NCBI RefSeq assembly: GCF_050920415.1 | Contig: NZ_CP169309.1 | DNA length: 64,000 nucleotides | Reading direction: 5' to 3' (one strand) | From: Escherichia coli | GTDB taxonomy: Bacteria > Pseudomonadota > Gammaproteobacteria > Enterobacterales > Enterobacteriaceae | Part shown: in pieces, positions 19,955-64,000 of the stretch | Layout: the number at the start of each line of letters is the position of its first letter | Position numbering within the stretch: position 1 is the stretch's first letter | Notes under the pieces: generated by a model | What the model was told of the DNA's origin: nothing | The model's database searches: none | The model's input: only the letters and a program-made list of their open reading frames with translations | Translations under genes and position numbers: made by a program

Positions 19955-20600
19955 GAGAAATCCTTTTCAATGAATGACATTTCAAATAATAAAATATGAG
20001 TAACAGATAAGAAATAGCCACAGGCTGTGTCATGATTTAATGTCTGCTCTTGAAATTTTATTTAGCAATCCCAGAATATTCAACTTAATTAGTATTTCGA
20101 AACCTCAATGTAGACACATAAAAAACAAATTATTCGATTACTTAGGCTATTTGTTGCATTAATACACATCCTCTAACAATAATCAGACAAAAAGCAATGT
20201 CAGCGTCAAATTGGGTAGCTGATTCATATTACTGATCACTCCGTAAATTCATTCATCGTGAAAATATTAACATTTCAACCATGTTCCATTTAATCAACCC
20301 ACTGAAAATCTGGAGGTTATCTACTGCGGTTTGTTGTTGACTGCCCCTGACAGGTTTACCTGGCGTTGACAGAAGATGAGGCTTGCAAAATGCTAAAAAC
20401 AATGTGGTGTTACAAGCAATCCCATAAACCTCGTAACTTCACTTAAATGAGCGATGCCGTCCATATTTGGGTTGACTATAAAAACCCTTAATATTGAGGT
20501 TGATGATGATATTCATGATGGCGTTGGAAAAATAGGACACCCATAAAATATCTATACAGCCTTTAAATTAAATCATTGAAATATCGCTGTTGCATAGTGC

Positions 20601-20927
20601 TTATTTTTGCAACCATTTCCCGTTAATTCCCTGCACATATTCCCCCCGTTTGGCCCGAGCTACAAGCCTTTGTCCGGCAAGCTTCGCGATATCATCTACC
20701 GATACATTATTTTGCTTTGCCAGTTGTTGATAACTCACTTTACGTGCGTCATTAATCTCGGTTACTAATTTCTCTGTTTCAGCATCCGTTTTCAACGCAA
20801 CCAAATAACCGTTAAATGTTTCACCTACCCGCCCCTGGATTCTGGCCTCGTCCAGTGTTAATGCCACTACATTGCTGCTTACCAGTCCAACAAGAAACGC
20901 ACAAAGAAGTAATGTTTTCTTCATCAT
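20601..20927 (-). CDS. ydbL: periplasmic protein YdbL (DUF1318)
   Basis: 108 aa from MMKKTLLLCAF signal peptide; track ORF extends further upstream but overlaps ynbE. Confidence 0.85.
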   Translation of the reverse strand: MMKKTLLLCAFLVGLVSSNVVALTLDEARIQGRVGETFNGYLVALKTDAETEKLVTEINDARKVSYQQLAKQNNVSVDDIAKLAGQRLVARAKRGEYVQGINGKWLQK

Positions 20928-31793: not shown

Positions 31794-32729
31794 ATGTCGC
31801 AAAATCAAGAAATTAGTAAGAAAGAACAATACAACCTGAACAAATTACAAAAACGTCTGCGTCGTAACGTGGGCGAAGCCATTGCTGACTTCAATATGAT
31901 TGAAGAAGGCGATCGCATCATGGTTTGCCTCTCCGGGGGTAAAGACAGCTATACCATGCTGGAGATTCTGCGCAATTTGCAGCAAAGCGCGCCAATCAAT
32001 TTTTCGCTGGTGGCTGTTAACCTCGATCAAAAGCAACCGGGCTTCCCGGAACACGTTCTGCCCGAGTATCTTGAAAAGCTGGGCATTGAGTACAAGATTG
32101 TGGAAGAGAACACTTACGGTATCGTGAAAGAGAAGATTCCGGAGGGCAAAACCACTTGCTCACTGTGTTCTCGTCTTCGTCGCGGAATTCTTTACCGTAC
32201 CGCAACGGAACTGGGAGCGACGAAGATCGCGCTGGGTCACCATCGTGACGATATCCTGCAAACGTTGTTCTTAAATATGTTCTACGGCGGCAAGATGAAA
32301 GGTATGCCTCCGAAACTGATGAGCGATGATGGCAAACATATTGTGATTCGTCCGCTGGCCTACTGCCGCGAGAAAGATATTCAGCGATTTGCCGATGCAA
32401 AAGCGTTCCCGATTATTCCGTGCAACCTGTGCGGTTCACAGCCTAACCTGCAACGTCAGGTGATTGCTGACATGTTGCGTGACTGGGATAAACGTTATCC
32501 GGGGCGTATCGAGACGATGTTCAGCGCGATGCAGAATGTGGTGCCGTCGCATCTGTGCGATACCAACCTGTTCGATTTCAAAGGCATTACCCACGGTTCT
32601 GAAGTGGTTAACGGGGGTGATCTGGCGTTTGATCGCGAAGAGATCCCTCTACAACCGGCGGGTTGGCAGCCTGAAGAAGATGAAAATCAGTTGGATGAGT
32701 TACGACTGAATGTGGTTGAAGTGAAATAA
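31794..32729 (+). CDS. ttcA: tRNA 2-thiocytidine(32) synthetase TtcA
   Basis: 311 aa ORF; PP-loop SGGKDS and CxxC motifs; full length. Confidence 0.92.
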
Positions 32730-45120: not shown

Positions 45121-46071
45121 ATGGCTATGTATCACAACATGCTCGTTGTTATCGATCCTAACCAGGACGACCAACCAGCATTGCGGCGAGCTGTTTATTT
45201 ACATCAACGGATTGGTGGCAAAATTAAAGCCTTTTTGCCGATCTATGACTTCTCATACGAAATGACCACCCTGCTCTCCCCGGACGAACGTACCGCTATG
45301 CGTCAGGGCGTCATCAGCCAACGAACAGCCTGGATCCACGAGCAGGCAAAATATTATCTCAATGCTGGCGTTCCCATTGAAATTAAAGTGGTCTGGCATA
45401 ACCGTCCATTCGAAGCCATCATTCAGGAAGTGATCAGCGGCGGGCACGATTTGGTGCTAAAAATGGCGCACCAACATGACCGTCTGGAAGCGGTGATTTT
45501 TACGCCAACGGACTGGCATCTGTTACGCAAATGCCCAAGCCCGGTGTGGATGGTGAAAGACCAGCCGTGGCCGGAAGGGGGTAAGGCGCTGGTGGCGGTG
45601 AATCTCGCCAGTGAAGAGCCGTACCATAATGCGCTCAATGAAAAACTGGTCAAAGAGACGATCGAACTGGCAGAACAAGTCAACCATACCGAAGTTCATC
45701 TGGTTGGCGCTTATCCGGTAACGCCAATTAATATCGCGATTGAACTGCCGGAATTTGACCCGAGCGTTTATAACGATGCCATTCGTGGGCAACATTTGCT
45801 GGCAATGAAAGCTCTGCGGCAGAAATTCGGCATTAATGAAAACATGACACACGTAGAAAAAGGTCTGCCCGAAGAGGTGATTCCTGATTTGGCGGAGCAC
45901 TTACAGGCGGGGATTGTGGTTCTGGGCACGGTCGGACGCACCGGTATTTCAGCAGCATTCCTTGGCAACACGGCGGAACAGGTGATTGATCATCTTCGCT
46001 GCGACCTGCTGGTCATTAAACCTGACCAGTATCAGACACCCGTTGAACTGGATGACGAAGAAGACGATTAA
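45121..46071 (+). CDS. uspE: tandem-domain universal stress protein UspE
   Basis: 316 aa from [12 protein letters not shown]; two Usp domains. Confidence 0.9.
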
Positions 46072-46092
46072 CGACTCTTCAATAACTGACAA

Positions 46093-46118
46093 GGCCCGAG
46101 TTATCGGGCCTATTTTTT
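46093..46118. terminator. bidirectional intrinsic terminator between uspE and ynaJ
   Basis: GGCCCGA...CGGGCC hairpin followed by TATTTTTT. Confidence 0.7.
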
Positions 46119-46120
46119 AC

Positions 46121-46378
46121 TTACTGCTCTTCGCCGCCAAGGAAATAAATACCCAACGGGATTGCCAGCAACACAGTAAAGACCAGGCTATAAACAAAAA
46201 TCATCGATGACTGAATCACATACATTGATGTCGTCCACTCAGACAGCGGAATATTGTACTGTTCTATAACGCCGCCGATGGTCGCGCGAGTCACAACCGA
46301 CGCCGCAATAATGAAAACCGCCAACAAACCAAAGAGAAATTTCTTCCCTTTCGCTGACTTCAGTTTCGCCATAATCAT
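46121..46378 (-). CDS. ynaJ: small inner-membrane protein YnaJ
   Basis: 85 aa ORF with two hydrophobic helices. Confidence 0.8.
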   Translation of the reverse strand: MIMAKLKSAKGKKFLFGLLAVFIIAASVVTRATIGGVIEQYNIPLSEWTTSMYVIQSSMIFVYSLVFTVLLAIPLGIYFLGGEEQ

Positions 46379-46621
46379 GATGTAATCCTTGTGCAGACAA
46401 ATTTCTTGTTACCTAAACGTAACAATACCATGACATTTCACCGTTGTCTGCTCTGAAAACCTCACCTCTTAGCTGGATTTACAATCAACGCATTGATTAG
46501 TTAGCTAATGTTGCTACTTCCTTCCCTGACTATTGATGATCTGAATGAATTGTCGCGGTAAAATAGCCCCGCCAGGGGTTTCCGGCATGACGACAATTAT
46601 CTGGAGGAGCCTGATAAAACA

Positions 46622-47653
46622 ATGATCGCTGAACTGTTTACAAATAATGCGCTTAATCTGGTCATTATTTTCGGTAGCTGCGCAGCATTGATTCTGATGA
46701 GCTTTTGGTTTCGCCGCGGAAATCGTAAAAGAAAAGGATTTTTATTCCATGCGGTGCAATTTTTCATCTACACCATAATTATCAGTGCTGTTGGTAGCAT
46801 CATTAATTATGTTATAGAAAACTACAAACTCCAATTTATCACTCCAGGCGTTATCGATTTTATCTGTACGTCCCTGATTGCTGTTATTCTGACGATTAAG
46901 TTATTTCTGCTGATTAATCAGTTTGAAAAACAGCAGATTAAAAAAGGTCGTGATATCACCAGTGCGCGGATTATGTCGCGTATCATCAAAATCACCATTA
47001 TTGTGGTACTTGTTTTGCTTTATGGCGAACATTTCGGCATGAGCCTTTCTGGCTTGCTGACCTTTGGTGGTATTGGTGGTCTGGCTGTTGGTATGGCCGG
47101 TAAAGATATTCTGAGTAACTTCTTTTCCGGGATTATGCTCTATTTCGACCGTCCTTTCAGTATTGGCGACTGGATCCGTTCACCGGACAGAAATATCGAA
47201 GGTACAGTAGCGGAAATTGGCTGGCGAATTACCAAAATTACGACCTTTGATAATCGTCCGTTATACGTCCCGAACTCGCTGTTTTCGTCTATCAGCGTAG
47301 AAAACCCGGGGCGAATGACCAACCGACGTATTACCACGACAATCGGTTTACGTTATGAGGATGCGGCAAAAGTGGGAGCCATTGTCGAAGCCGTACGTGA
47401 GATGCTTAAAAATCACCCGGCCATCGACCAGCGACAAACCTTACTGGTTTATTTCAACCAGTTTGCTGACTCGTCATTGAATATTATGGTTTATTGCTTT
47501 ACCAAAACCACAGTATGGGCTGAATGGCTTGCCGCCCAGCAGGATGTTTATTTGAAGATTATCGATATTGTACAGTCACACGGCGCGGATTTCGCGTTCC
47601 CAAGCCAGACGCTGTATATGGATAACATTACACCACCAGACCAGGGTCGTTAA
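46622..47653 (+). CDS. ynaI: MscS-family mechanosensitive channel YnaI
   Basis: 343 aa ORF; N-terminal TM helices and MscS-like beta domain; no IS element between ynaJ and ynaI. Confidence 0.88.
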
Positions 47654-47698: not shown

Positions 47699-49309
47699 TC
47701 AATGTTTCACAATATACATAGTCCGGCTATACGCCACATCTTCCGGGTTATTAATGGGATAACCTTTCAGCCACGGCTTGATTAATCGTCCATTGGTATA
47801 TTGATAAATTGGTGCAATCGGTGCTTGCTCCATGAGGATTTTTTCTGCCGCATTGTAATCGGCATTACGCGCTTTAACGGTATTTTCCGTCGATGCCTGG
47901 GCCAAAACTTTGTCGTAGGCCGGGTTGTTAAAGCGTGAAATGTTGCCTGAATGCGTTGACGTTAATAATGTCAGGAAGGTGGAGGGTTCATTATAATCCC
48001 CCACCCACGAGGCGCGGATAACATCAAAATTACCTGTATTACGACTATCGATATAGGTTTTCCATTCCTGATTTTGCAGTTTGACATCTACACCAAGGTT
48101 CTTTTTCCACATCGATGCCACAGCAATCGCAATTTTTTGATGGTTTTCTGAAGTATTATACAAAAGCGTCAGCTTCAGCGGTTTTTGCGGACCATAACCG
48201 GCTGCGCTCAACAAAGTTTTTGCCTGCGCATTCAGTTCTTCCTGACTCATTTGTTCAAACGGCGAAGGCTCCGGCGTGAATCCGGCAGTAACATCTGGCG
48301 TAAAATGCCACGCTGGTTTTTCGCCCGTCCCCAACACTTTTTCGGTCATCAGGCGGCGATCTATCGTCATACTTAATGCCAGACGAACGCGCTGATCTGC
48401 CGTCGGCCCTTTTTGCGTGTTAAACGCATAATAATAGGTTCCGAGCTGCGGCGGTGTATAAACCTGCCCCGGAATATCCTTCAACAGCTTCTGATACATA
48501 TTTTTGGGGAAGGATTCGGTGATATCAATATCCCCCGCGAGATAACGCTTAGTGGCTGCGGATTCCTGATTAATTGGCAGGAAGGTCACTTTTTGCAACA
48601 CCGTTTTGGCGTTATCCCAATAATGGGTATTTGGCACCACGACCAGTTTTTCATTGACTACACGCTCTTTAAGAACATAAGCGCCATTGCCGACCAGATT
48701 TCCGGGTTTCGTCCACTCTTTCCCGCTTTCTACGTTAGCTTTTTGCACCGGGAAGAAGGCAAAATTGGCTGTTAAATTCACAAACCACGGCAACGGTTTA
48801 TCAAGCTGGATTTTCAAAGTACGGGCATCAACCGCGGTGACGCCTAGCTGATCAGGCGTAGCTTTACCATCAATAATCGCCTGTGCGTTGTTGATTCCCG
48901 CCAGCGCGGCAAACCAGGCAAACGGCGACAACGTTTTTGGGTCAACCAGACGTTGCCAGCTGTAGACAAAATCCTGTGCCGTTACCGGTGTGCCATCCGC
49001 CCATTTTGCGTTATCGCGCAGGGTGAAAGTCCAGATACGGTTGTCATTACTTTTCCACTGAGTCGCAACGCCGGGGACAATCTCCCCTTTCTCGTTCTGA
49101 TTCACCAGTCCTTCAAAAAGATCGCGAATGACCTGAATCTCTGGCAGACCCACGGCTTTAGCGGGATCCAGCGACGCAGGCTCATCTTTAATATGGCGCA
49201 CCAGCTCCTGCTTCTCTGCCAGTACTGTGCCGCTCGGAACTTCTGCAGCATACGAAAGAGACATTATGCAAAGTGGCAAAAACGATATATAAATCATGAT
49301 TTTATTCAT
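47699..49309 (-). CDS. mppA: periplasmic murein tripeptide-binding protein MppA, with an AT-rich, apparently replaced 5' end
   Basis: OppA-family SBP sequence; start taken at MNKIMIYISFLPLCIMSLSYA/AEV signal peptide (ATG at 49309); the first ~20 codons and upstream DNA are AT-rich, unlike the rest of the gene. Confidence 0.85.
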   Translation of the reverse strand: MNKIMIYISFLPLCIMSLSYAAEVPSGTVLAEKQELVRHIKDEPASLDPAKAVGLPEIQVIRDLFEGLVNQNEKGEIVPGVATQWKSNDNRIWTFTLRDNAKWADGTPVTAQDFVYSWQRLVDPKTLSPFAWFAALAGINNAQAIIDGKATPDQLGVTAVDARTLKIQLDKPLPWFVNLTANFAFFPVQKANVESGKEWTKPGNLVGNGAYVLKERVVNEKLVVVPNTHYWDNAKTVLQKVTFLPINQESAATKRYLAGDIDITESFPKNMYQKLLKDIPGQVYTPPQLGTYYYAFNTQKGPTADQRVRLALSMTIDRRLMTEKVLGTGEKPAWHFTPDVTAGFTPEPSPFEQMSQEELNAQAKTLLSAAGYGPQKPLKLTLLYNTSENHQKIAIAVASMWKKNLGVDVKLQNQEWKTYIDSRNTGNFDVIRASWVGDYNEPSTFLTLLTSTHSGNISRFNNPAYDKVLAQASTENTVKARNADYNAAEKILMEQAPIAPIYQYTNGRLIKPWLKGYPINNPEDVAYSRTMYIVKH

Positions 49310-49352
49310 ATATTTTTTAACCTTAAAATAATATGGTACACACAATGGTACA

Positions 49353-49380
49353 CAAAAAGAAACGAGGCGTTAGCCTCGTT
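49353..49380 (-). terminator. intrinsic terminator downstream of the prophage tail-fibre gene
   Basis: AACGAGGC-gtta-GCCTCGTT hairpin followed on the minus strand by TCTTTTTGTG. Confidence 0.6.
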
Positions 49381-49409
49381 TCGCGGCGATGTTCTTCGCA
49401 CATCACCTC

Positions 49410-51782
49410 TTATTCTTCGCTTCCGGTCAACTGCTTAACAAGCGCAACCAGTTCGCTAACCTGATTTTCAAGATTGGTGATACGTTCATCCATGACAGTA
49501 ATGTTAGCACGTAAGCTGGCGTTTTCTTCTTCCAGTGCTGTAGCTTTCAACATTAAGGATTGTGTAACGTGCATTGTATCGAGCAATAAAGGCGTAGTAT
49601 CAAGCTCTTTCACCTCTATTTCTTTGTTGTTATTATCATAATGTGTTCTTGTTTTTACATATAACGGATCTATTAGTTCGGCTGATTGTGAAATAATGCC
49701 ACGCCGCACTCTTTCTTTTTCATCACCATTGAATACGAATGTTACGAAATCAAGGTTTTCTAAATTGCTCCACGCTTTATCTACGGTAGCGTGCTGCACA
49801 TTATGCTTAAATCTAATATCAGATATTGCATTTTTAGTAACCGTTGAGGTTTCTGTTACGGAATAATTATCCCATTTGGTAAAGTAAATGTTTGAATCAA
49901 ACGGGGCAATTTCAAGTCTTACTCCGTATTTGTTATCACTATCACCAACGCAGTTTAATGAAGTCCTAGCAAAACTAGTGGTATTGTGATGAATTAAACC
50001 GAGACTATACCAAGTCGCATACCCCGCTGAGGATGCTTGCCCTGCACTAAAATTGGAATTAAACGACCAGTTTTCACCTATATTAGTGTAAGGTACAACG
50101 AATGTTGCGCCGTGCGTTGGGATCTCACCCCAACTTAAAAGTTTTTGCGTTGTAGCCCTAAATGATGCTGATTCAAAAAGCCCGCTATCATTTACCGTAA
50201 TTCTCCCCTTGTTCCCTGATGTTTTATTTTCAACTTCAATAACTGCATAGTGGGATTGATCGATATACGCATCACCCCACATCGACACTTCGCATTCTGA
50301 GGCGTCACCGATCTTGTATACGGATTTTACAACACCTGTAGTTGATTTTGTTCCGGTTGATAGCCTTGTTTTGTCGGCGTTAATTACGCTCCAGGATGTA
50401 TTTGCAGCGGTAAAGCCACCAGATGCACGGATCACCCATACACCAACAAAGTTTCGTGTAAGAATTTCATCTGTTGATGCTCCATAAATCGGGCTACACC
50501 GTGACGCATCAAAAGTACATGTATTATAACGGCCTTCCAAAGCGGTTGTACCGCTAGGAATTGCATCACCTACACCGTCAGGAAATACACTGTTATCGGA
50601 GGAAAATGCACCATAAGATGTGCCAATGGCTTGCGCGTAACTCCCACCGGAATAAGTGGTAAAATAACCAGTAATATTTGGCGCGGCTGATTCAAATAGT
50701 TGTCCGTTTGCACTACTAACGCCACCATCACCTCGACCATAAAGCGCTCTGATCGATCCTTCTTGTATACCGTTTTTATCGGGAACGCGGAAAGTTGTTT
50801 CTCCGTCACCCGTGGAATATTTACCGCGTTGGAATTTATCAGCCAGCCATTCAGAATCATCTATAGCGCCCACCATTTGAGCGTAAGCCCACAATTCAGG
50901 CCAATCTGCACGGTTAAGTAATTGCCCGTCCGATGTAACCTCATAAGGCTGAATATAAGCGCGGCTATCGCGTAAGTGGAAATCCCCTACGCCGTAATTC
51001 ATAACACCGTTCATTGTTGGTCCGACTGTACCACTATTGATATAGTTCATTACCCAACGCATTGTTACAGCGTCGTAATCACTTACCGGATCGCCTGCTA
51101 ATGGCGTTGAACCTATTGGGCGAACGTTCAACCAGGCCGCCGCTCGGTCGGCAAGATCGGAAAGGTTATTTTGTATTCTTAGAAATGAATCCGGGTTTAT
51201 GTCGTTTTTGTACCCTTCCGCTATGTTTTTATATTCTTCGGCGTTAGCGGCGCTTTCTGCTGCGTTTACTGCCGCCCCTGTTGCGGTAACAGCCCCTTCT
51301 TCTGCTGTTTGTGCTGCTGCTTCTGCTGCTGCTTTAGATGATTCGGCGTCTGTTTTGTATTGCTGAGTTGTCGCTTTATCTGCGCTTACTTGCGCTGAGT
51401 CCGTGTGAACTTGGTTAACTAGTGCTATCAATCCATCAAGATCAAATTCCTGAAAAAATTCAACTGCGTTTGCAATTTCGGTTTCCTTGCCCTGATAGTA
51501 ACGCAGAGTTTCAGCAACATCTTGCGCTAAACCATCTACAGAAATCGAGTCTGAAAGCAGAATACTGAATTTTGTCCCGGCAGATATTGCAGGGTCGGCC
51601 GCAGGAGTTACTGATAATTCAGTTCCGCTCTTAATTTCGGTGATGGTAAATATCTGCACAGGATCGCTAACTGCAATCAGCGTGCACCCTTCCCGGATGA
51701 GCGAAAGCGGCGCGGTGAAGCTTGTCCCCAAGCCTGTAACAGTGTTACCACTAATAGCTATTGTTCCTGTTGTATAAATCAT
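49410..51782 (-). CDS. phage tail fibre protein with tail-collar domain and C-terminal peptidase-S74-like intramolecular chaperone
   Basis: 790 aa; Stf-like N-terminus; collar-domain motif (DWPELWAYAQ...GDGETTFRVPDKNG); C-terminal SDIRFKHNV motif followed by coiled coil, typical of autoproteolytic chaperone domains. Confidence 0.8.
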   Translation of the reverse strand: MIYTTGTIAISGNTVTGLGTSFTAPLSLIREGCTLIAVSDPVQIFTITEIKSGTELSVTPAADPAISAGTKFSILLSDSISVDGLAQDVAETLRYYQGKETEIANAVEFFQEFDLDGLIALVNQVHTDSAQVSADKATTQQYKTDAESSKAAAEAAAQTAEEGAVTATGAAVNAAESAANAEEYKNIAEGYKNDINPDSFLRIQNNLSDLADRAAAWLNVRPIGSTPLAGDPVSDYDAVTMRWVMNYINSGTVGPTMNGVMNYGVGDFHLRDSRAYIQPYEVTSDGQLLNRADWPELWAYAQMVGAIDDSEWLADKFQRGKYSTGDGETTFRVPDKNGIQEGSIRALYGRGDGGVSSANGQLFESAAPNITGYFTTYSGGSYAQAIGTSYGAFSSDNSVFPDGVGDAIPSGTTALEGRYNTCTFDASRCSPIYGASTDEILTRNFVGVWVIRASGGFTAANTSWSVINADKTRLSTGTKSTTGVVKSVYKIGDASECEVSMWGDAYIDQSHYAVIEVENKTSGNKGRITVNDSGLFESASFRATTQKLLSWGEIPTHGATFVVPYTNIGENWSFNSNFSAGQASSAGYATWYSLGLIHHNTTSFARTSLNCVGDSDNKYGVRLEIAPFDSNIYFTKWDNYSVTETSTVTKNAISDIRFKHNVQHATVDKAWSNLENLDFVTFVFNGDEKERVRRGIISQSAELIDPLYVKTRTHYDNNNKEIEVKELDTTPLLLDTMHVTQSLMLKATALEEENASLRANITVMDERITNLENQVSELVALVKQLTGSEE

Positions 51783-51941
51783 CTCAACAACTCCATAATG
51801 TTAACTTATGTGTCAATTCTACCATTTTGCGATCTGTGTTACATTTCTGTCTTATACAAAATGTATTTGTTGATTTACATCAATGTTGTGAAAATGCGGT
51901 TTGTGGATACTACAACCAACGAAACAACGGAGGGTAAGACA

Positions 51942-52181
51942 ATGAAAGGCTTAAAAAATATCGCTATCGCTGCAATGGTTGCTGGTCTGGTTGGTTGTGC
52001 TGATATGCCGAAACGTGAATGCACGGCAATTTATCAAACTGGCGGTAATGAGTATGCGGTTGCAGTCTTCGGTGTCGCGGATGTTGGTGGTCACAAAATG
52101 GCTAAGGCTGGGTATCCATTTAATTTTCAATGGGTGAGCGTTGACCACTTCAAGAAAACGGATTGCCCGGAATTGAATTAA
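51942..52181 (+). CDS. phage lipoprotein, possible Cor-like superinfection-exclusion protein
   Basis: 79 aa from ATG at 51942 with SD GGAGGG; lipobox LVGC; opposite-strand gene at the distal end of the tail module, where cor sits in N15/phi80-like phages; family assignment is inference. Confidence 0.5.
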   Translation: MKGLKNIAIAAMVAGLVGCADMPKRECTAIYQTGGNEYAVAVFGVADVGGHKMAKAGYPFNFQWVSVDHFKKTDCPELN

Positions 52182-52771
52182 TCATAGGCGTCGGTTTTAA
52201 TGGCGGTGATAGCGTTCCCGTGGTTAATATAGCCAGTTGGTGCATATACGCTACCCGCCTGGATGCCGTAAATTCTAGTTGTGCTTCCGTTGTAATAAGC
52301 CGCCGCATAAATGGATGCACTACCCTGTCCAACGAGCGCCCCTAACAATTGGGGGCAAATAGCATAAGAACCGGATAACGTTTGGTCTATATAAATTCCG
52401 CCGCTTGATCCTGCCGTCCCAACGGTTACAAGGTCTGTTAATATTCTTGATTCATTAGTTAGCACTAGTTCCCCGGAAGCGTTCCAAATAGCCATTCCCC
52501 ACTTCGGCAGCGATGGCGGGAAAATAGTGAAAATATACGCATACCCCGAACCAGCCCCGATTAGTAAAGTTGATGGGCTATTTCTATAAGCTAATACAGC
52601 GGCGGCGGTAGTGCTTTTTACAAATACCATCACGGGCTTCCCGGATGGCACGGCGACGGTTTGATTCGATGATGTTAATGTCACCCGTTCATATAAGCAA
52701 AGCGGCGTTGCTTCCGGTGTAACGAAAATATTCCCGTTACTTAATCTCAAATAAGCTCCGAAGGTTGCCAT
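52178..52771 (-). CDS. phage protein (197 aa) downstream of J, N-terminus MATFG
   Basis: ORF whose stop overlaps the next gene; shares the N-terminal MATFG with the adjacent 103 aa ORF; Gly/Ser/Thr-rich. Confidence 0.6.
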   Translation of the reverse strand: MATFGAYLRLSNGNIFVTPEATPLCLYERVTLTSSNQTVAVPSGKPVMVFVKSTTAAAVLAYRNSPSTLLIGAGSGYAYIFTIFPPSLPKWGMAIWNASGELVLTNESRILTDLVTVGTAGSSGGIYIDQTLSGSYAICPQLLGALVGQGSASIYAAAYYNGSTTRIYGIQAGSVYAPTGYINHGNAITAIKTDAYD

Positions 52772-53082
52772 TAAGCCACCTCCGCAAATATAACAATTTC
52801 ACACTGTGACGCGGGCCATATATTAGCGCCTACCGTATCCCCTGCCGAGGAAATGGAAACAGTACCACCCGAAATAGTGATCTTTCTGCGCGTCGTTGAC
52901 GTTGTGCCATAATCAAGCGTCATCCCATAAGATAATTTGCATCCGGTCGGCACTGTAAAGGTATATGTGCCGGATACCTGCCCGGATGATAAGGAAATAT
53001 AACCAACCACAACGGAAGGTTTAATTCCATAGTTATTAGCATTGCCGCTGGCGTCCCAGGTCGCTACGCCGAAAGTAGCCAT
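52771..53082 (-). CDS. phage protein (103 aa) downstream of J, N-terminus MATFG
   Basis: ORF immediately after J with SD (GGAGG); Gly/Ser/Thr-rich beta-type composition. Confidence 0.6.
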   Translation of the reverse strand: MATFGVATWDASGNANNYGIKPSVVVGYISLSSGQVSGTYTFTVPTGCKLSYGMTLDYGTTSTTRRKITISGGTVSISSAGDTVGANIWPASQCEIVIFAEVA

Positions 53083-53134
53083 AATTACACCTCCTTAATA
53101 AAAAACTGAGGCCGAACAAGTCGGCCCCTTAATT

Positions 53135-56100
53135 CTACCATGATCCGGTAATTCGCCCAATCTGGACGCGCAAAACCCCGTTACCGTCTTTTACCGAAAT
53201 AGTGGTATTAGTTAATTTCATCGCGCCCTCACCACTCACCGCGCCGTAGTTTTCGAATGTCCCGCCTTTATCCAGTTTCCATCCGGTACTGCCGGAAACA
53301 TAGTTATTTGACTGGATGTAAGAACCTATTTTCGCGTTGGTGATTGAGGCGTCTTTTATAAATGCTTCGCGAACATACATAGCGCCGTTTTCAACATAAA
53401 ATGGTGTCGTATATGTGCCGTTGGCGGCTGTCATTAATACGAAGCGGTCAACAAGAAAAATACATTGTGATTGCGTATTTGCGCCATCACCAGTTACCCC
53501 AAGCGATATTCCTGACGCGTATTTCATACCGTTGTTATCAGTAGCGATCTTGAGACTCCAAGTTGCCGACATATCACCATTAATATTGGTAATTGCTGTT
53601 TTGTTTTCCTCAATAAGCACTGATTGCCCATTAATTGATGCGGTTACTTCGCTAATTTGCTGCGCGGTTGCTTTTTCAAGCGTAACCATTGCTTGTTCAA
53701 GGTTTGTGACCTTCCCTTGAATATCATCACTTATTTTTGCTTCAAGCTCTGATAATGCTTTTGCTGTTGCCTCTTTTTCCGTTGCGACAACTTCATCTAT
53801 ACGCGTGATCTCTGCTTTTGATTGTTTCAACTGAGCGGAAAGTGTGCGTCTTGATGTTGTTTGAGCTACGGAATTATTAAGAAGCGCAATGGAAACGTTT
53901 TGCAAGCGGGCGCGAGTTTGTGTTAGTTCGCTATCCTGTTCCGAAAGCTCGACACCTATTTCGTCAATACGACTTTCATGAACCCCTAACCCCTCTTCGT
54001 TATTCTGGACGCGATTAATTAGATCTGATGTGGTATCCTTCAGATCGGTAACATCCCCTTTAAGTGTGCTCGTGTCACTAATCAACCCTTGAAATTGCTC
54101 GCTTTCCATGACTTCTTTCGTCACGAAATCTGTAATTTCGTCGAAGTCCTCCGTAGGCTTCCCGGATGCCTCAATAAAATCTGACACACCGAACGCGTTG
54201 CGGGTGCGAATGTACACATAATACATGTGGCCTGTGCTCATGCCGCCGAACGTCCATTGATAACCACGTCCGGTATACTGCGCTGACGTGGTTATGGTTG
54301 CCGGATCCGTAATCCTGTTTTCTCCGGCGTAATAAAATTCATATGCCGTATCAGTGGTGAGTGTTGTTTTGCTTATCGGGTAGACAGTAGCCTGAAATAC
54401 ACCAGGCACCCAATTTACACCGACAGGCGCGGATGGCGCTCCAATCACCAGATCGACGATGCTTTCTGCACCCTTCATGCCAGTGTCATTTCTGCCGCGA
54501 ACACCTAACGTGTATGAACCAGCATCAATGCCATAAAAATCATAACTGTATTTCGTGGTTTCATAGCTTTTAACCACCGCACCATCTGCATTGTATATGC
54601 GGATCTCGAATGTCATGCGATGAGTGGTAGTCTGTGTCTCCCACGTTGCGCGGCATTGAACTGTTTCCGATCCAATGTTTACTACCTTCAGATTTTCGAT
54701 GTTCGGCACACGGAAGTGATTAAGCGTGTCGCTGTTGATTTCGAAGATTGCGCCTTCATCGACTACGGCTTGTTTGTTAGGGTCGTGCTGCGCGGCTTCG
54801 ATAGTGTATACGCTGTTATTTTGTGTTTCTGCTACGCTGGTGATCCTACACAAAACTGGTTTTGCTGCGTTAGTTGATACAGCAAAAACAGTGCCATTTC
54901 GAATCCATGTTGGGGCCGCAGCAAGGGTGATATTGTTTCCGTTAACTCCGGTGATCTGGTGTTTTTTAAATTTGCCATCGCTATCAAGAAGGCTTATTGT
55001 GTCGCCAGCGGTCACATATTCAGAATCAACCTTATCTACAGTGATCACACGTCCATTGTTAGAGACAATACGACCGCCTAAGCGAGCGCCAGCACGGTTA
55101 TTGTCGAGTATCTCGATGATATCACCTGGCGTAAAGTGAATCGCGTCACGGGCCATTTTAAACGTGAATTTTGAAGGCTCGCGCTTCGCTGTTTCTATCA
55201 GCCATTTACCCGCCCGGTGCGCTTGCCCGCGTGATGTACACCCGAAAGCCTCCAGCGTGGTTTCGTTGTAGCCGTCACGGGCGATTAGTTCATCATCTGC
55301 GACATACTCTTTTGATTGTTCCCAGCCGTTTTCCGGATCAGTCCATGACACAATTACCGCGTTGTAGCATTCTGATCGCGCGATACTTGAACGGGTAAAT
55401 GCACCATCCACGACGTTTGCGTTAGTGATGGTTGCGATTGGGTCTTGTGGTGCATCAATCATTATAGTAAGGCGCTGACCATCCCATAACGCTATACCAC
55501 GGAACATCCCGGCGATGTTGTCCAGTAGGTCGCGGGCGCTCATTTGCTCTGTGATGTACGCGTTTAGCGTGACGCGCGGCTCTAAGCCACCATAGCCATC
55601 ATCAACCAACTGATCGCAGTATTGAGAGAGCGTATACAAAGCACCATCATCAACATCGATATAACCAGCCTGTCGAGCAAGGCCAAAACGCTCGTTTTTA
55701 ACCAAGTAGCGGAATATCCACGCCGGGTTATTTGTGTATGCCTTTTTAAGTCCGCCAAGCCATAAACCGGAATAATTTCGTTTTTCCGGGTCGTAGTTAT
55801 CCGGTACATCGACAATCAGCCCACGCAGATGATAAGTGCGTGTAGGTGTATCGGAGTACTGGTCATGGTCAATTACCGCGCCAGCTACAGCAGTGTGAGG
55901 ATAAGACAAGTTATCGTCGATGATTTCGCTATAACTGTTCCAGCGGGTATCGTTCTGTAATAGGTCGCTTACACTATCAGCCGTCACGCGGCGCACGCGA
56001 ATATCAAATGGCTTTTCATCCGGCGCATCAATGATATGAGACTCCAGATATTCACCGCTAATCTTACCCGGACCGATTTGTACGGCCTTAACCGCCGACC

Positions 56101-56554
56101 AGGTGGAAGACGAGGACGGTTTAACATCGATTGCCATAATGACAGACGTTTCTTTCTGGTTTGATTGGTTATCGCTTTCCACCAGTGAATCCACGCCAAT
56201 ATTTAGCCGGACGCGCGTCACGTTCGGATCTGATACCGTCCTGACCAGTGGCGTATCATGCTTTACCTGTGCGTTAACCATCACCGTTGATTCAATGGCG
56301 TTAAAGCCGTTGATCGGTGACTGGTCGGCAGTACCCGGACGCCAGGCGACACTAACGCCTGGAATGCTGGTATTACCTACCGCATCCGTAACAGGAGTGT
56401 CATTAAGCATTACGCAGTTTAACGGCGCGGCAGTATTGACAGGCCCATAAATCGGCCCTTCGCTCAATATATCAAGCACGCGATAAAACTGCTTATGGAA
56501 CAAGTTATCGTTTATTAATGTTGGTGTTTTTGCTTTACCACCGCCGCCGCCCAT
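53135..56554 (-). CDS. phage tail tip / host-specificity protein J
   Basis: 1139 aa (lambda J is 1132 aa); position after I; fibronectin-III-like central region. Confidence 0.9.
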   Translation of the reverse strand: MGGGGGKAKTPTLINDNLFHKQFYRVLDILSEGPIYGPVNTAAPLNCVMLNDTPVTDAVGNTSIPGVSVAWRPGTADQSPINGFNAIESTVMVNAQVKHDTPLVRTVSDPNVTRVRLNIGVDSLVESDNQSNQKETSVIMAIDVKPSSSSTWSAVKAVQIGPGKISGEYLESHIIDAPDEKPFDIRVRRVTADSVSDLLQNDTRWNSYSEIIDDNLSYPHTAVAGAVIDHDQYSDTPTRTYHLRGLIVDVPDNYDPEKRNYSGLWLGGLKKAYTNNPAWIFRYLVKNERFGLARQAGYIDVDDGALYTLSQYCDQLVDDGYGGLEPRVTLNAYITEQMSARDLLDNIAGMFRGIALWDGQRLTIMIDAPQDPIATITNANVVDGAFTRSSIARSECYNAVIVSWTDPENGWEQSKEYVADDELIARDGYNETTLEAFGCTSRGQAHRAGKWLIETAKREPSKFTFKMARDAIHFTPGDIIEILDNNRAGARLGGRIVSNNGRVITVDKVDSEYVTAGDTISLLDSDGKFKKHQITGVNGNNITLAAAPTWIRNGTVFAVSTNAAKPVLCRITSVAETQNNSVYTIEAAQHDPNKQAVVDEGAIFEINSDTLNHFRVPNIENLKVVNIGSETVQCRATWETQTTTHRMTFEIRIYNADGAVVKSYETTKYSYDFYGIDAGSYTLGVRGRNDTGMKGAESIVDLVIGAPSAPVGVNWVPGVFQATVYPISKTTLTTDTAYEFYYAGENRITDPATITTSAQYTGRGYQWTFGGMSTGHMYYVYIRTRNAFGVSDFIEASGKPTEDFDEITDFVTKEVMESEQFQGLISDTSTLKGDVTDLKDTTSDLINRVQNNEEGLGVHESRIDEIGVELSEQDSELTQTRARLQNVSIALLNNSVAQTTSRRTLSAQLKQSKAEITRIDEVVATEKEATAKALSELEAKISDDIQGKVTNLEQAMVTLEKATAQQISEVTASINGQSVLIEENKTAITNINGDMSATWSLKIATDNNGMKYASGISLGVTGDGANTQSQCIFLVDRFVLMTAANGTYTTPFYVENGAMYVREAFIKDASITNAKIGSYIQSNNYVSGSTGWKLDKGGTFENYGAVSGEGAMKLTNTTISVKDGNGVLRVQIGRITGSW

Positions 56555-56566
56555 AATAACCCCCTA

Positions 56567-57097
56567 TTAACTTACAACGTCCAGCGCGTCTTTATTGTTG
56601 GTTGTATCAATACCCAGGGATCCAACATTCGAACCTATTTTCATTTCACCCAATAAAATTGGAACGGGACGGCCCTGGCCTACTCTGTTTTCTACACTGG
56701 TGTAACTGTTATTTGTGATGCTATTATCCTGCGCACTTTCCGCTGATGTTTTTACTTTCATGTTTCGGGCCATGAAAATAGAAAACGCGATGCTTGCAAC
56801 GGAAAGGCCGATTAACAGCCAGCCAACCACACCGATCCCTGCGATACCACCTTCTACCACTGGCGCAACAATAATTGTTGTTCCGTCAGGGTATTCACTA
56901 TTAACGGCAGCAGGTGCGGTTTTTTCGTCGTAATCTTTCCCGGCAATGCGTAAGCGTAATGGCGTACTTAAAAACGCTCGCTTAAATTCCTGATTCTGTG
57001 CGGTCAATAAGCGAAGCCCTTGCGCGGGCGTATTAACGTTTAAACACACTTTGCTGTAATATCTTCGAAGATTGCCCGTAAATCTAAATTTGAGCAT
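56567..57097 (-). CDS. phage tail assembly protein I
   Basis: 176 aa ORF between K and J with central hydrophobic segment; 5' end overlaps K. Confidence 0.75.
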   Translation of the reverse strand: MLKFRFTGNLRRYYSKVCLNVNTPAQGLRLLTAQNQEFKRAFLSTPLRLRIAGKDYDEKTAPAAVNSEYPDGTTIIVAPVVEGGIAGIGVVGWLLIGLSVASIAFSIFMARNMKVKTSAESAQDNSITNNSYTSVENRVGQGRPVPILLGEMKIGSNVGSLGIDTTNNKDALDVVS

Positions 57098-57771
57098 TTG
57101 TCAGATCTCCATATTGAATGCGTTTGTCGAACATACGCTGGCCGCATTTGCTCGCGGCGGCTTAATAGTCCGGCATGGTCATGATGCAAAACCGTGTTAT
57201 CACCCAGGTAAAGCATTGCGTGACATGGATCCGCGCCTTTAAACGGCTGCCGGATGATCACGTCACCAGGCTGGATGTTTTGCGTGTCAATCTGAAAAAA
57301 ACCGTTTAGCGGCAAGTTTTTTAAATACAGGTTTTCACCGCGTAGCCACCACCCATCAAGGCGATCGAAGTCCGGCAGGTCTACGCCGCAAAGGTGATAG
57401 GCATCCCGAAAAAGCGTGTAACAATCAGTTGTCCCGTGTACAAATTTACGTCCTAGCAAGTGCGCCACCGGACGGAACTTCCTGATCTTGCCGCCTGAAT
57501 ATAAAAACCACGGCAGCCCGGAAATAACATGCTGTTGTCGATCCCGTGCCGACAATACCGGAATATCATCAACGTGGGAGTGAAAAACGGCGGTTATAAC
57601 GCCCAATTCGTCAGCTTTGATGTAATCGTCCGGCAAAATTTTAAAGCTGTTATGCGGCGTCTCAGACACGTTCACGCACGGGTAAAAATATTCATTGTCT
57701 ATCACCAGTCCGCAAACTTCCTCAAACGGATGTGCGGCGGCATAACGAAACATTTTGTCTTTCAGCGTCAT
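57040..57771 (-). CDS. phage tail assembly protein K (JAB/MPN plus NlpC/P60-like)
   Basis: Start taken at MTLKDKMFRY 2 nt after L stop; JAMM-like motif (FHSHVDD...S..D); lambda K homologue by position. Confidence 0.8.
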   Translation of the reverse strand: MTLKDKMFRYAAAHPFEEVCGLVIDNEYFYPCVNVSETPHNSFKILPDDYIKADELGVITAVFHSHVDDIPVLSARDRQQHVISGLPWFLYSGGKIRKFRPVAHLLGRKFVHGTTDCYTLFRDAYHLCGVDLPDFDRLDGWWLRGENLYLKNLPLNGFFQIDTQNIQPGDVIIRQPFKGADPCHAMLYLGDNTVLHHDHAGLLSRREQMRPAYVRQTHSIWRSDKCSNLDLRAIFEDITAKCV

Positions 57772-57773
57772 AA

Positions 57774-58511
57774 TCAACCTACCTTGCTTGATCCTGGAAA
57801 ACATGAGATCGGCAATGGATTTGGACGCGGGAAACGCAAGCGACAACCGCTTAGGCGGTGGCTGCACCTGTCTAATGTTGGATCGTTTGTCGGCTCGTCT
57901 TTGTCTGTAGCAACTGGCCCGCCAGAGTACGCACAGCCATCACCTCTATACTGCCACTGGCAAACGTCAGCAAGAATGGTGCGGCCTGGGATCACCGCCT
58001 TATCTGCATCAATTGGCGTTGACAACTCATATTGCACCTGATCCGCTGTTTCTTCACTCATGGCCTCTATAACGTAAAAGGACACCGCCTCAATAGATGG
58101 ATCAGCGTCAGGATTGCCATTTGGGAAGTTAACAGCGTCAAGGTATTTCACTTCCACCTGGCGGCGCGTAACCTTCATGCCTCGAAGGTCGTTATAGTCG
58201 GTATTCATCCCGGTAATGAGTCCGCCAATGTTTGCTACAGCCATTTGAGGGCGAGAATAAACTCCTTCGTTTTTCATTTCGAAGCCAGTAGCCTCGATTG
58301 GATAGCTGTTATAAGCCACGCCCTTCCAGATGACCGGACCGTAATAACCATTCGCGCCGGAATGGAAGCGGACAACCTCGCCACCAAGGGGAGTAAGGTC
58401 CAATTCGAACAAGTCAATGATTGCGCCGACTCCCGCATCGACGGAATCAATAATCATCTCTGTAGGTATATTGCGCATTTTATCACCTTGTTGTTTTGTG
58501 ATCTGCATCAC
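57774..58511 (-). CDS. phage minor tail protein L
   Basis: Recognisable similarity to lambda L (e.g. RRQVEVKYLDAVNFPNGN, QWQYRGDGCAYSG, C-terminal Cys cluster); exact start uncertain. Confidence 0.85.
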   Translation of the reverse strand: MMQITKQQGDKMRNIPTEMIIDSVDAGVGAIIDLFELDLTPLGGEVVRFHSGANGYYGPVIWKGVAYNSYPIEATGFEMKNEGVYSRPQMAVANIGGLITGMNTDYNDLRGMKVTRRQVEVKYLDAVNFPNGNPDADPSIEAVSFYVIEAMSEETADQVQYELSTPIDADKAVIPGRTILADVCQWQYRGDGCAYSGGPVATDKDEPTNDPTLDRCSHRLSGCRLRFPRPNPLPISCFPGSSKVG

Positions 58512-58616
58512 ACCGTGAATGCCAAAATGGATTGATAGCGTGATTTACAATATGTATATTTTACTCAAACGAACGGTAGTAAACAAAATGGCACAGTTTG
58601 GAACAGGATAGGACAC

Positions 58617-58775
58617 TATGAGATCCGCAAAATACGCAGAAAAAGTTTTCGTTGAAGTGAAAGGCGACATGAAAAAATTTATGGATGTTCTTATCAAAGA
58701 GATGGGAAAACCGTTCCATATAGCCGAACGTCAGTATTACGCTTGCAAGGCTAATAGCTACAACAGATACGCATG
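58617..58775 (+). CDS. moron ORF C1 (52 aa), unknown function
   Basis: First ORF of a compact plus-strand cassette inserted between tail genes L and M. Confidence 0.4.
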
Positions 58776-58798
58776 ACAATAAACACAAAGGTAACACT

Positions 58799-58891
58799 AT
58801 GCAAAAATATCGTCTTGATGTGTGGATGGCTGGAAATAAAGATTGGGAAGGTTTCGGATTATTTGACAGCCGCGAACTGGCTAACGACTAA
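58799..58891 (+). CDS. moron ORF C2 (30 aa), unknown function
   Basis: Short ORF with AAGG SD in the same cassette. Confidence 0.3.
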   Translation: MQKYRLDVWMAGNKDWEGFGLFDSRELAND

Positions 58892-58972
58892 GGGGAAAAA
58901 CTTGTTAACTTCTTTGGACGGGCCAGGGAGTTTTAAGTAACCCCGGTACAGATAGAAAATAAGGTGGAAGAG

Positions 58973-59152
58973 ATGAAATACGATATTGATAACGACGCTT
59001 GCTTTAAACAAAACTTTGCGGATTCTATGGATCAGTCTTGCCCTGAAATACACGCACACGGTTTCCCGGCAGATAATCCAGACATGAAACGCGAATACGA
59101 AAAAGCGGCGAAAGATTTCTGCATCGACAATCTGGGCGCATTCGATAGATAA
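58973..59152 (+). CDS. moron ORF C3 (59 aa, acidic, Cys/His-containing), unknown function
   Basis: ATG preceded by AAGGTGG; track ORF 58964..59152. Confidence 0.5.
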   Translation: MKYDIDNDACFKQNFADSMDQSCPEIHAHGFPADNPDMKREYEKAAKDFCIDNLGAFDR

Positions 59153-59161
59153 GGCGGCAAT

Positions 59162-59410
59162 ATGGCGAGGCGAAAACATAGCGATTATATGTACACGCTG
59201 AAGCAGGCCGCCCGCCTTATCGGTTATCATGAACACGAATTTATTGATTTGCTGATTGAGCGCGGGATTTTATACCAGGTCTGTTTAACGCTGTACCCGA
59301 AAGCGAAATACTTGCAGGAAAAGTTATTCATCATCATGACGGATGAAAACCAGGTTAATCACTCATTCGTCACTGCCAAAGGCGTTAATTATCTGCGCGA
59401 TAACTTATAG
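59162..59410 (+). CDS. moron ORF C4 (82 aa), putative HTH-containing protein
   Basis: ATG preceded by AAGGCGG; segment TLKQAARLIGYHEHEFIDLLIERGIL resembles a helix-turn-helix. Confidence 0.5.
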   Translation: MARRKHSDYMYTLKQAARLIGYHEHEFIDLLIERGILYQVCLTLYPKAKYLQEKLFIIMTDENQVNHSFVTAKGVNYLRDNL

Positions 59411-59420
59411 GTGACAGATT

Positions 59421-59537
59421 ATGAAAATAGAAGTTTTGGCGCTAATAGTAATGGGATTGATAGTATTTGGTGTTCATGCTGTAGATCTGGACTGGAAAAC
59501 GATAGCAGAAAATATAGCGTTAATGGAAATGGAATAA
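59421..59537 (+). CDS. moron ORF C5 (38 aa), small hydrophobic membrane peptide
   Basis: ATG preceded by AGGTGA; single predicted TM helix (LALIVMGLIVFGV); followed directly by a terminator. Confidence 0.4.
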   Translation: MKIEVLALIVMGLIVFGVHAVDLDWKTIAENIALMEME

Positions 59538-59541
59538 TAAT

Positions 59542-59560
59542 AACCCCGCTTCGCGCGGGG
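59542..59560. terminator. intrinsic terminator closing moron cassette C (possibly bidirectional)
   Basis: CCCCGC-ttcg-GCGGGG hairpin followed by TCGTGTTTAT. Confidence 0.65.
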
Positions 59561-59566
59561 TCGTGT

Positions 59567-59752
59567 TTATACGCCATCAAGTAAAAATAAAACTTCCTTG
59601 CCTTCTCTTGATCTGCATCCTACATAACCGTCACCCATGTCATGAAGATACCAGGTCTCACCATTATCAGCTTTTACAGTAAGATCGTTGATTTCATAGT
59701 CGTCAAACAATGTAAAAGCGCCCGTGCGGTCCACTACACAAATAGCATACAT
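59567..59752 (-). CDS. small phage protein (61 aa) between M and L, unknown function
   Basis: ORF starting MYAICVVDRTG with SD GGAGG; start lies 14 nt 3' of the M stop on the same strand. Confidence 0.45.
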   Translation of the reverse strand: MYAICVVDRTGAFTLFDDYEINDLTVKADNGETWYLHDMGDGYVGCRSREGKEVLFLLDGV

Positions 59753-59765
59753 ATTGACACCTCCA

Positions 59766-60119
59766 TTAATTGACAACTTGCTCAAAAGTTGCGTTTAGCG
59801 TGTACAAAGACCCGTCTTTAGTCATGCTCCATCGGCGGCAAACAAAAAGCCTTTGCACGTTATCCATCGACGGCGACCAGTAAAAAGCCTCGACCGCGCC
59901 GCGCGCCCTCAAGAATGCTTCCGCCTGGATTGCTACGTTTTCACCATCACCACATCCGGCGCTACTGCCTTTAAATACCAGGGTGTAGCTATCAAGCAAT
60001 GGATTGATACCTTTTACCTGTCTTTGCTCATAACCATCGCCCAGCTTAACAACGGATACGTCCGGCTCCCTGGTCACGCTGTAGCTTCGTTGTGGCGTCC
60101 ATCTGAACACTTCCGGCAT
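59766..60119 (-). CDS. phage minor tail protein M
   Basis: 117 aa; similarity to lambda M including FRW near the N-terminus, GDGY.QR, and identical C-terminal FEQVVN. Confidence 0.88.
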   Translation of the reverse strand: MPEVFRWTPQRSYSVTREPDVSVVKLGDGYEQRQVKGINPLLDSYTLVFKGSSAGCGDGENVAIQAEAFLRARGAVEAFYWSPSMDNVQRLFVCRRWSMTKDGSLYTLNATFEQVVN

Positions 60120-60308
60120 AAAACCCCCATAAGTTACATTTTGTATATATCTTTACGCGCTTCTACGCGAAAAATAAGATCTTCATCACAATGATTATAG
60201 CTAGTTTACAAAATGGCTTCACATAGCACACAACAAGATGTATATAAAAAGCAAGAAGAAAAGCAGTACCAACGAAGGAGGCCCAAAAATGAAACGCTAT
60301 GAGTAGTA

Positions 60309-60443
60309 ATGCTAAACAACGCATTCGAACAAGTGGAAATAGCAATCGTTAAGGGTTTCGACGACGCATTTAAATACGGTCAATTCATGATTAATGCAAA
60401 AGAAGATGAATACCGTGATTTCTTCCTGAAGGCTCTTAATTAA
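60309..60443 (+). CDS. moron ORF B1 (44 aa), unknown function
   Basis: ATG 2 nt after the stop of a 5-codon mini-ORF (MKRYE) that has an AGGAGG SD, suggesting translational coupling. Confidence 0.35.
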   Translation: MLNNAFEQVEIAIVKGFDDAFKYGQFMINAKEDEYRDFFLKALN

Positions 60444-60462
60444 GAATAATCGGGGGTGAGCT

Positions 60463-60717
60463 ATGAAACTGGTAGCGATTGACAAAAACCTGAAAGTACA
60501 GAAAAACGCACAGGACCGGATTATCAAGAAAGGTAAGGAACTGCTTAAAGCATTTTTGAAGAAAGAGGCGCGCCCCAAAAAGTTACGCGATGGTTATGGC
60601 TTTAAATTCGATATCAATCATGACTGGCGGCTGTTCAGCGAAGACCTCAAAGTCTGGTTAATAATCGATCACCTGGAATATAACAGGCACTGCGGGGTTA
60701 AAGGGGCGCATAAGTGA
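60463..60717 (+). CDS. moron ORF B2 (84 aa), candidate RelE/ParE-superfamily (HigB/Gp49-like) toxin
   Basis: ATG with SD GGGGGTGAG; basic N-terminal helices and C-terminal RDGYGFKFDINHDWRLFSEDLKVWLIIDHLEY pattern resembling the RelE/HigB beta-sheet core; assignment by pattern recognition only. Confidence 0.5.
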   Translation: MKLVAIDKNLKVQKNAQDRIIKKGKELLKAFLKKEARPKKLRDGYGFKFDINHDWRLFSEDLKVWLIIDHLEYNRHCGVKGAHK

Positions 60718-60725
60718 GGCGGGAT

Positions 60726-60818
60726 ATGGAGGACGATAAATTCACCTGGCGGGAGATCTGGAATATTTGGTTGGTGATGTTTTCTCGCAGCTATATAGCC
60801 AGAAACGGAAGATTGTAA
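60726..60818 (+). CDS. moron ORF B3 (30 aa), unknown function
   Basis: Short ORF with SD (GAGGCGG) abutting B2. Confidence 0.3.
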   Translation: MEDDKFTWREIWNIWLVMFSRSYIARNGRL

Positions 60819-60836
60819 TTTGCGGAGGAAAATAAA

Positions 60837-61013
60837 ATGAAAAACCCGGCAAATAAAAGCAATGTAAAACGTATAGCCTGGATCGTGAAATGGATGGATA
60901 GTAAAGGAGACACATATACTGAACCATTTTTCAAACATACTGATGCAGTATTTGCAAGAAGCGTAAGAGGCGGGAAAATTGAAAGAGGATATACAAGTTT
61001 TGAGAATAACTAA
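60837..61013 (+). CDS. moron ORF B4 (58 aa), unknown function
   Basis: ATG with GGAGG SD; followed by a strong terminator. Confidence 0.45.
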   Translation: MKNPANKSNVKRIAWIVKWMDSKGDTYTEPFFKHTDAVFARSVRGGKIERGYTSFENN

Positions 61014-61020
61014 AATATAA

Positions 61021-61050
61021 CCCCGGCATTGTACCGGGGTTTTGTTTATT
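61021..61050. terminator. intrinsic terminator closing moron cassette B, overlapping the 3' end of the tape-measure gene
   Basis: CCCCGG-cattgta-CCGGGG followed by TTTTGTTTATTT. Confidence 0.8.
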
Positions 61051-63385: not shown

Positions 63386-63536
63386 GATTTAACCTCATGC
63401 AAAATGTGATCTATGCATCTATTTTATACAAAATGTCTTTATTTTAACGATACCGTTTTGTATAGATGATGTAGGGAAAGATAGAAGAGATGCAGGAAGG
63501 ACGGATGTCCCGGAGGAAGTGAAAGAGGATAAGGAA

Positions 63537-63620
63537 ATGAGAAACGTAAACTACCGTCCCAACGAATATGAACGCTATGCGGACCTTATCGAAGAAATGT
63601 TAAAAGCACTTAAAAAATAA
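63537..63620 (+). CDS. moron ORF A1 (27 aa), unknown function
   Basis: Short ORF with purine-rich SD upstream of the secreted-protein gene. Confidence 0.25.
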   Translation: MRNVNYRPNEYERYADLIEEMLKALKK

Positions 63621-63687
63621 ACAATATGCGTGTATAACTAAGTTAAAGGAAGCATTTAGCAAATCAGAATAATTACAGGGGTTGATT

Positions 63688-64000
63688 ATGAAACGGTTAG
63701 CAAAAATGGTACTTGCTGTGATTGCTGCACTGGCATTTAACGCGAACGCTAACGAGGCCATAAACATTAACTGTGAAGAAGTGGCAAACCATGTAGCCGC
63801 ATATCACGACATGATCAAAAAAGAACCAGCCGCACCCACAATTCTTTTTAAGGCAATTGATAAAAATTTTGAAGGGAAACCAGTTTGTGCTCGTTGGTTT
63901 AATTATGGCCTTGTAAACGAGGCTGCTGTAGGCGTAGTCTTTGAAAACAACAGCGAAATAAAAAACAGGATAGCTAACGAGTGTAAAGCAAATAAAGTTG
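63688..64000 (+). CDS. moron ORF A2, secreted Cys-containing protein (partial, runs off window end)
   Basis: ATG at 63688 with SD (AGGGG); cleavable signal peptide MKRLAKMVLAVIAALAFNANA; no stop before position 64000. Confidence 0.55.
   Translation, partial: MKRLAKMVLAVIAALAFNANANEAININCEEVANHVAAYHDMIKKEPAAPTILFKAIDKNFEGKPVCARWFNYGLVNEAAVGVVFENNSEIKNRIANECKANKV

Follow-up and report, generated by a model that had tools for sequence, protein, structure and literature searches.

The region between ynaJ and ynaI in the Escherichia coli genome studied here is almost certainly native and never interrupted, preserved in the pre-insertion state that is common to almost all E. coli. In the 64,000-nucleotide stretch of DNA analysed (hereafter the window), ynaJ (-) and ynaI (+) face away from each other and share a non-coding spacer of exactly 243 bp, as read from the list of open reading frames and the sequence itself. 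The order of genes is ogt, fnr, uspE (+), then ynaJ (-), ynaI (+) and mppA (-), with the names ynaJ, ynaI and uspE taken from the RefSeq annotation of matching genomes. The earlier note on this DNA had described the gap as about 240 bp of ordinary intergenic sequence without IS5, and it was right in this and in the position of the gap. Searches with blastn and tblastn revealed no IS5 DNA and no InsH-like ORF anywhere in the window; the spacer in particular holds neither the approximately 1.2 kb of IS5 DNA, nor the 16-bp terminal inverted repeats of the element (GGAAGGTGCGAA[C/T]AAG), nor insH, and there is no mobile element, no fragment of the IS5 inverted repeats and no duplication of the TTAG target at the point where the insertion lies in K-12. 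That IS5 is missing from this spacer was read directly as presence or absence, and a chance statistic does not apply to it. Positions of the features discussed are collected in table 1.

Table 1. Features of the ynaJ-ynaI locus in the window and insertions at the same site in two other genomes (window positions unless a locus is named).
Feature	Position	Strand	Basis or remark
uspE/ynaJ convergent terminator hairpin	46092-46111		terminator scan
ynaJ (DUF2534 small membrane protein, 85 aa)	46121-46378	-	ORF and RefSeq annotation of matching genomes
ynaJ-ynaI divergent intergenic region, uninterrupted, 243 bp	46379-46621		sequence; identity to K-12 flanks
Inverted repeat TTGTTAC-N6-GTAACAA	46406-46425		28-47 bp upstream of ynaJ start codon
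ynaJ candidate promoter (-35 CAGACA, spacer 17 nt, -10 TATTGT, TG upstream)	46450-46422	-	relaxed scan, 8-of-12
Inverted repeat AATCAA-N4-TTGATT	46483-46498		adjoins IS target cluster
Three adjacent YTAR tetramers, TTAG TTAG CTAA	46497-46508		motif count; includes 8-bp palindrome TTAGCTAA
Unoccupied IS5 target tetramer TTAG (CTAA on other strand)	46501-46504		single copy; site of IS5F in K-12
ynaI candidate promoter (-35 TTGCTA, spacer 18 nt, -10 GATGAT)	46511-46540	+	relaxed scan, 8-of-12
ynaI candidate promoter (-35 ATGATC, spacer 17 nt, -10 TAAAAT)	46536-46564	+	relaxed scan, 8-of-12
26-aa ORF, TGA overlapping ynaI ATG (ATGA)	46545-46625	+	compatible with chance
G+C-rich hairpin with T-run in presumed ynaI leader	46570-46587	-	scan; compatible with chance
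ynaI (low-conductance mechanosensitive channel, 343 aa)	46622-47653	+	ORF and annotation
ISKpn26/IS5Y-type element in Eco_23-3571	L007 3028-4223	opposite to IS5F	extracted locus coordinates
IS5-family element in FDAARGOS_943	L006 4098-5012		extracted locus coordinates

The comparison with K-12 is exact to the base. The annotation of K-12 MG1655 (NC_000913.3) places an 'insertion sequence:IS5F' of 1195 bp, carrying insH4 (b1331), at 1396044-1397238 between ynaI (b1330) and ynaJ (b1332), which agrees with the earlier note's placing of an IS5 copy between these two genes in K-12. The same locus is listed among the 11 IS5 loci of K-12 BW25113, as an intergenic one between divergently transcribed genes (PMC11677980, 2024). 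IS5F is bordered at both ends by CTAA, a 4-bp target duplication, and when the element and one CTAA are removed from the K-12 ynaJ-insH-ynaI region, the remaining sequence, reverse-complemented, aligns with window positions 46379-46621 with 0 mismatches over 243 bp. In a megablast alignment of the window with K-12 the break falls on the target tetramer, with a 4-bp overlap that corresponds to the target-site duplication, and BLAST with a locus probe gives the same breakpoint (4-bp overlap, query 502-505). The K-12 locus (NC_000913.3 1394891-1397622) thus has the same genes in the same divergent layout and an identical non-IS spacer, and differs by the 1195-bp IS5F and a second CTAA, neither of which is present in the window. 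While the spacer is 100% identical to that of K-12, identity falls to 95.9% in the adjacent ynaI-mppA stretch and to 97.6% from uspE to ttcA; this contrast suggests either unusually strong conservation of the non-coding DNA or a recombination boundary, as far as can be judged from pairwise identities.

A survey of 5,426 complete E. coli genomes, of which 5,422 gave any match to the ynaJ-ynaI locus, demonstrates how common the empty site is. An uninterrupted site was found in 5,055 genomes (93%), with the 1-kb and the 200-bp probes in agreement, and these include O157:H7, ST131, SE11 and environmental isolates. Over 200 bp, nearly all of these 5,055 genomes match the uninterrupted spacer at 98.5-100% identity, and 5,054 genomes do so at 99% or more. 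Strains N96, MFDS1022581, SE11 and O157:H7 all have a contiguous spacer as in the window, and nothing notable differs at the locus; N96 is 100% identical to the window over the 9.2 kb around the spacer, and N96 and MFDS1022581, which are 99.6-100% identical to the window, are already without the insertion. The junction between IS5 and the ynaI side of the spacer as it exists in K-12, on the other hand, was detected in 355 genomes with a 200-bp probe and in 357 with a 54-bp probe. About eight genomes fit none of these patterns, lacking both the empty site and each of the three insertions characterised here and below.

We sampled 20 of the junction carriers at even steps through the ranking and judged their membership in K-12 on strain names and genome sizes. 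All 20 proved to be either K-12 derivatives by name or genomes of 4.5-4.8 Mb from laboratory or conjugation contexts: ER1709, 9FA, tolC-, MG1655 (two records), DH1, AML003_par, DH5alpha, an O16:H48 mouse-gut isolate, EC2648-R2, W3110-P, GB2005, HT-948, C600, K194T1-1018, T177A, two 'laboratory developed' TUM strains, MC4100 and LT615377. J53-type strains count among the laboratory strains represented. Judging from the names and genome sizes of these 20 carriers, the IS5F insertion looks restricted to the lineage of K-12.

Four things were observed directly: how the genes are arranged, the empty site to the base, its identity with the flanks of the element in K-12, and the frequency of each allele among the genomes surveyed. 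Because the K-12 element is flanked by a 4-bp duplication of a tetramer that is single-copy in the window, the empty allele is best regarded as ancestral; and because this allele is widespread whereas the occupied one is limited to K-12 derivatives in the sample, the empty allele represents the species norm as well. The claim of the earlier note that the ynaI promoter context is ancestral here therefore stands, both on the single copy of the target and on the frequencies of the empty site and of the K-12 junction. In the scenario we favour, IS5 moved into the TTAG/CTAA tetramer in the K-12 lineage and duplicated it, thereby splitting a spacer that should carry the promoters and leaders of both ynaJ and ynaI. 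In K-12 the insertion leaves 121 bp between IS5F and the ynaI start codon and 126 bp between IS5F and that of ynaJ (the latter figure counting the second copy of CTAA). The absence of IS5 from the ynaJ-ynaI spacer is thus an ordinary feature.

A broader reading was proposed in the earlier note, namely that the lack of IS5 here, together with an uninterrupted ydbA, marks a lineage with unusually few insertion sequences. Its premise concerning ydbA is sound: the gene (14417-19954, minus strand) is one uninterrupted ORF of 1845 aa that begins with the signal peptide and extends through the C-terminus of the autotransporter, whereas ydbA of K-12 is split by IS2D and IS30C. Moreover, K-12 has four IS copies in the corresponding stretch, namely IS5F, the IS5Y of Rac, and IS2D and IS30C in ydbA, and none of them is present, IS5 is absent from the whole window, and the backbone from 20.6 to 49.3 kb is collinear with N96 in a single alignment that leaves no room for an IS. 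We nevertheless consider this reading improbable. What is absent are features of K-12; IS5F looks specific to K-12, and nearly every E. coli shares its absence, so these absences do not discriminate between lineages, and the empty site is uninformative on IS load. In addition, the IS load of a whole genome cannot be measured from a 64-kb window, and the window is not free of other mobile DNA, since a lambdoid prophage lies in mppA. The notion of an IS-poor lineage is hence left unsupported rather than refuted.

The ydbA allele of the window is a divergent one. At the protein level its N-terminal passenger part, signal peptide included, shares 36% identity with fragment 1 of K-12 ydbA, and its C-terminal part shares 63% with fragment 3, in an alignment that reaches the final residue of the autotransporter domain. 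Judging from ORF positions, and with the N96 alignment starting at window position 20603, ydbA apparently adjoins ydbL/ynbE (region ~19955-20600), and the feaR-feaB-tynA-paa cluster, which occupies about 19 kb between ydbA and ydbL/ynbE in K-12, appears to be absent from the window. Also absent is the 23-kb Rac prophage of K-12 (1411899-1434958, with IS5Y). The K-12 flanks of Rac meet at window positions 31801-31843 with a 43-bp overlap, which is the unoccupied Rac attachment site at the 3' end of ttcA.

The integration point of the lambdoid prophage lies within the 5' end of mppA; the prophage occupies positions 49264-64000 of the window, with the junction at about 49262-49312, and its genes include those for a 790-aa tail fibre, the host-specificity protein J, tail assembly proteins and the tape measure protein. 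Homology of mppA to its counterparts in K-12 and N96, both free of this prophage, begins only at the SLSYAAEV codons, and on the phage side the gene acquires a replacement start and signal peptide (MNKIMIYISFLPLCIM...), with a terminator-like hairpin in front of them. The O157:H7 strain LSU61 shares this organisation of prophage and mppA, and its mppA is annotated as intact; none of the complete genomes matches the prophage part at high identity throughout, and LSU61 is the best match to window positions 40000-64000 (84% coverage, 95% identity).

The target site has been hit more than once. Two genomes that do not belong to K-12 have independent insertions of IS5-family elements at, or no more than 3 bp from, the K-12 target. 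In Eco_23-3571, from an African green monkey, an ISKpn26/IS5Y-type element of 1196 bp is inserted at exactly the same CTAA, which is duplicated. Its identity is 91.3% with IS5F, relative to which it is inverted, and 99.6% with the divergent IS5Y of K-12; the corresponding site of the window is unoccupied. The genome of FDAARGOS_943 (5.27 Mb) harbours a different, unrelated-looking member of the IS5 family, about 0.9 kb long, whose transposase is frameshifted and whose ends read GGCTGTGTCCC; it is inserted at TA(G) in positions 46498-46500, i.e. 1-3 bp from the K-12 target. More than 30 matches to the end of this element occur in the same genome, and it is the only genome with this insertion at the ynaJ-ynaI site. 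A separate observation in FDAARGOS_943 is a 10-bp deletion (ATTGATGATC; L006 ~5040-5050, equivalent to window positions 46531-46540) in the half of the spacer nearer to ynaI; this deletion removes the weak promoter-like hexamers GATGAT/ATGATC.

The cluster of tetramers has therefore been struck independently at least three times, by IS5 in K-12, by an ISKpn26-type element in the monkey isolate and by another IS5-family element in FDAARGOS_943. IS5 prefers YTAR targets, and the recurrent insertion requires no new mechanism, since three such targets lie next to each other in AT-rich intergenic DNA. One may speculate that TTAG-TTAG-CTAA is a true hotspot for the IS5 family, favoured by local DNA structure or by selection for a changed expression of ynaI or ynaJ, in which case the empty site would be a poised regulatory switch point; the activation of glpFK, flhDC and bgl by IS5 insertion offers a model for such a role. 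We view this idea with considerable doubt.

The same recurrence is the one thing that could be brought up for a different history of the window, in which IS5 was formerly present here in the lineage and later removed by precise excision, which would make the empty site secondary: the site is a proven target of IS5-family elements in at least three lineages, but nothing more specific speaks for such a course of events. Precise excision that restores a single copy of the target is rare for IS5. The window has one TTAG and no scar, its spacer is base-for-base equal to that of thousands of genomes from many lineages, and the IS5F junction appears to be limited to K-12 derivatives, which makes a secondary loss extremely improbable. 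An IS copy present in the real genome and collapsed or skipped in the assembly, with the empty site as an artefact, deserves just as little credence, for no point speaks in its favour, repeats normally break short-read assemblies instead of being spliced out cleanly, and the exact junction with its one TTAG matches that of 5,055 complete genomes. A site that was never occupied thus remains by far the best explanation.

As for the content of the intact spacer, a scan with the sigma-70 consensus found no promoter in it at the standard threshold, and the literature searched yielded no transcription-start data for it. A relaxed scan returned only matches in 8 of 12 positions, which we treat as weak candidates. 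Each of the three is closer to its gene than the IS target is; should they prove real, we infer that two core promoters would flank the target site, and that the insertion in K-12 would part them and destroy neither. The inverted repeat TTGTTAC-N6-GTAACAA is possibly an operator or a leader hairpin. The other inverted repeat, AATCAA-N4-TTGATT, was considered as a binding site for FNR and rejected, its half-sites being in reverse order with respect to the FNR consensus, which is TTGAT-N4-ATCAA. The terminator scan gave two terminator-like hairpins against 0.9 expected, which is not significant, and no Rfam family matched at E<=1 in a scan of positions 45900-46900. Small ORFs in the spacer are only of the size expected by chance (21-31 aa), and no Shine-Dalgarno sequence is apparent, on visual reading, upstream of the 26-aa ORF that overlaps the start of ynaI.

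One consequence of the insertion in K-12 concerns genes beyond its immediate neighbours. In K-12 stocks, recombination between the IS5 copy b1331 and another IS5, inserted next to ogt, deletes the segment from ynaJ through uspE to fnr (PMC2072959). With no IS5 between ynaJ and ynaI, this recombination route to the loss of fnr is missing in the genome to which the window belongs. Otherwise the finding matters very little, except that it identifies the K-12 reference as an atypical genome at ynaJ-ynaI. Anyone studying the ynaI and ynaJ promoters in K-12 works with an IS5 that sits 121-126 bp upstream of either start codon, whereas in wild E. coli, the present genome among them, the divergent control region of 243 bp is intact.
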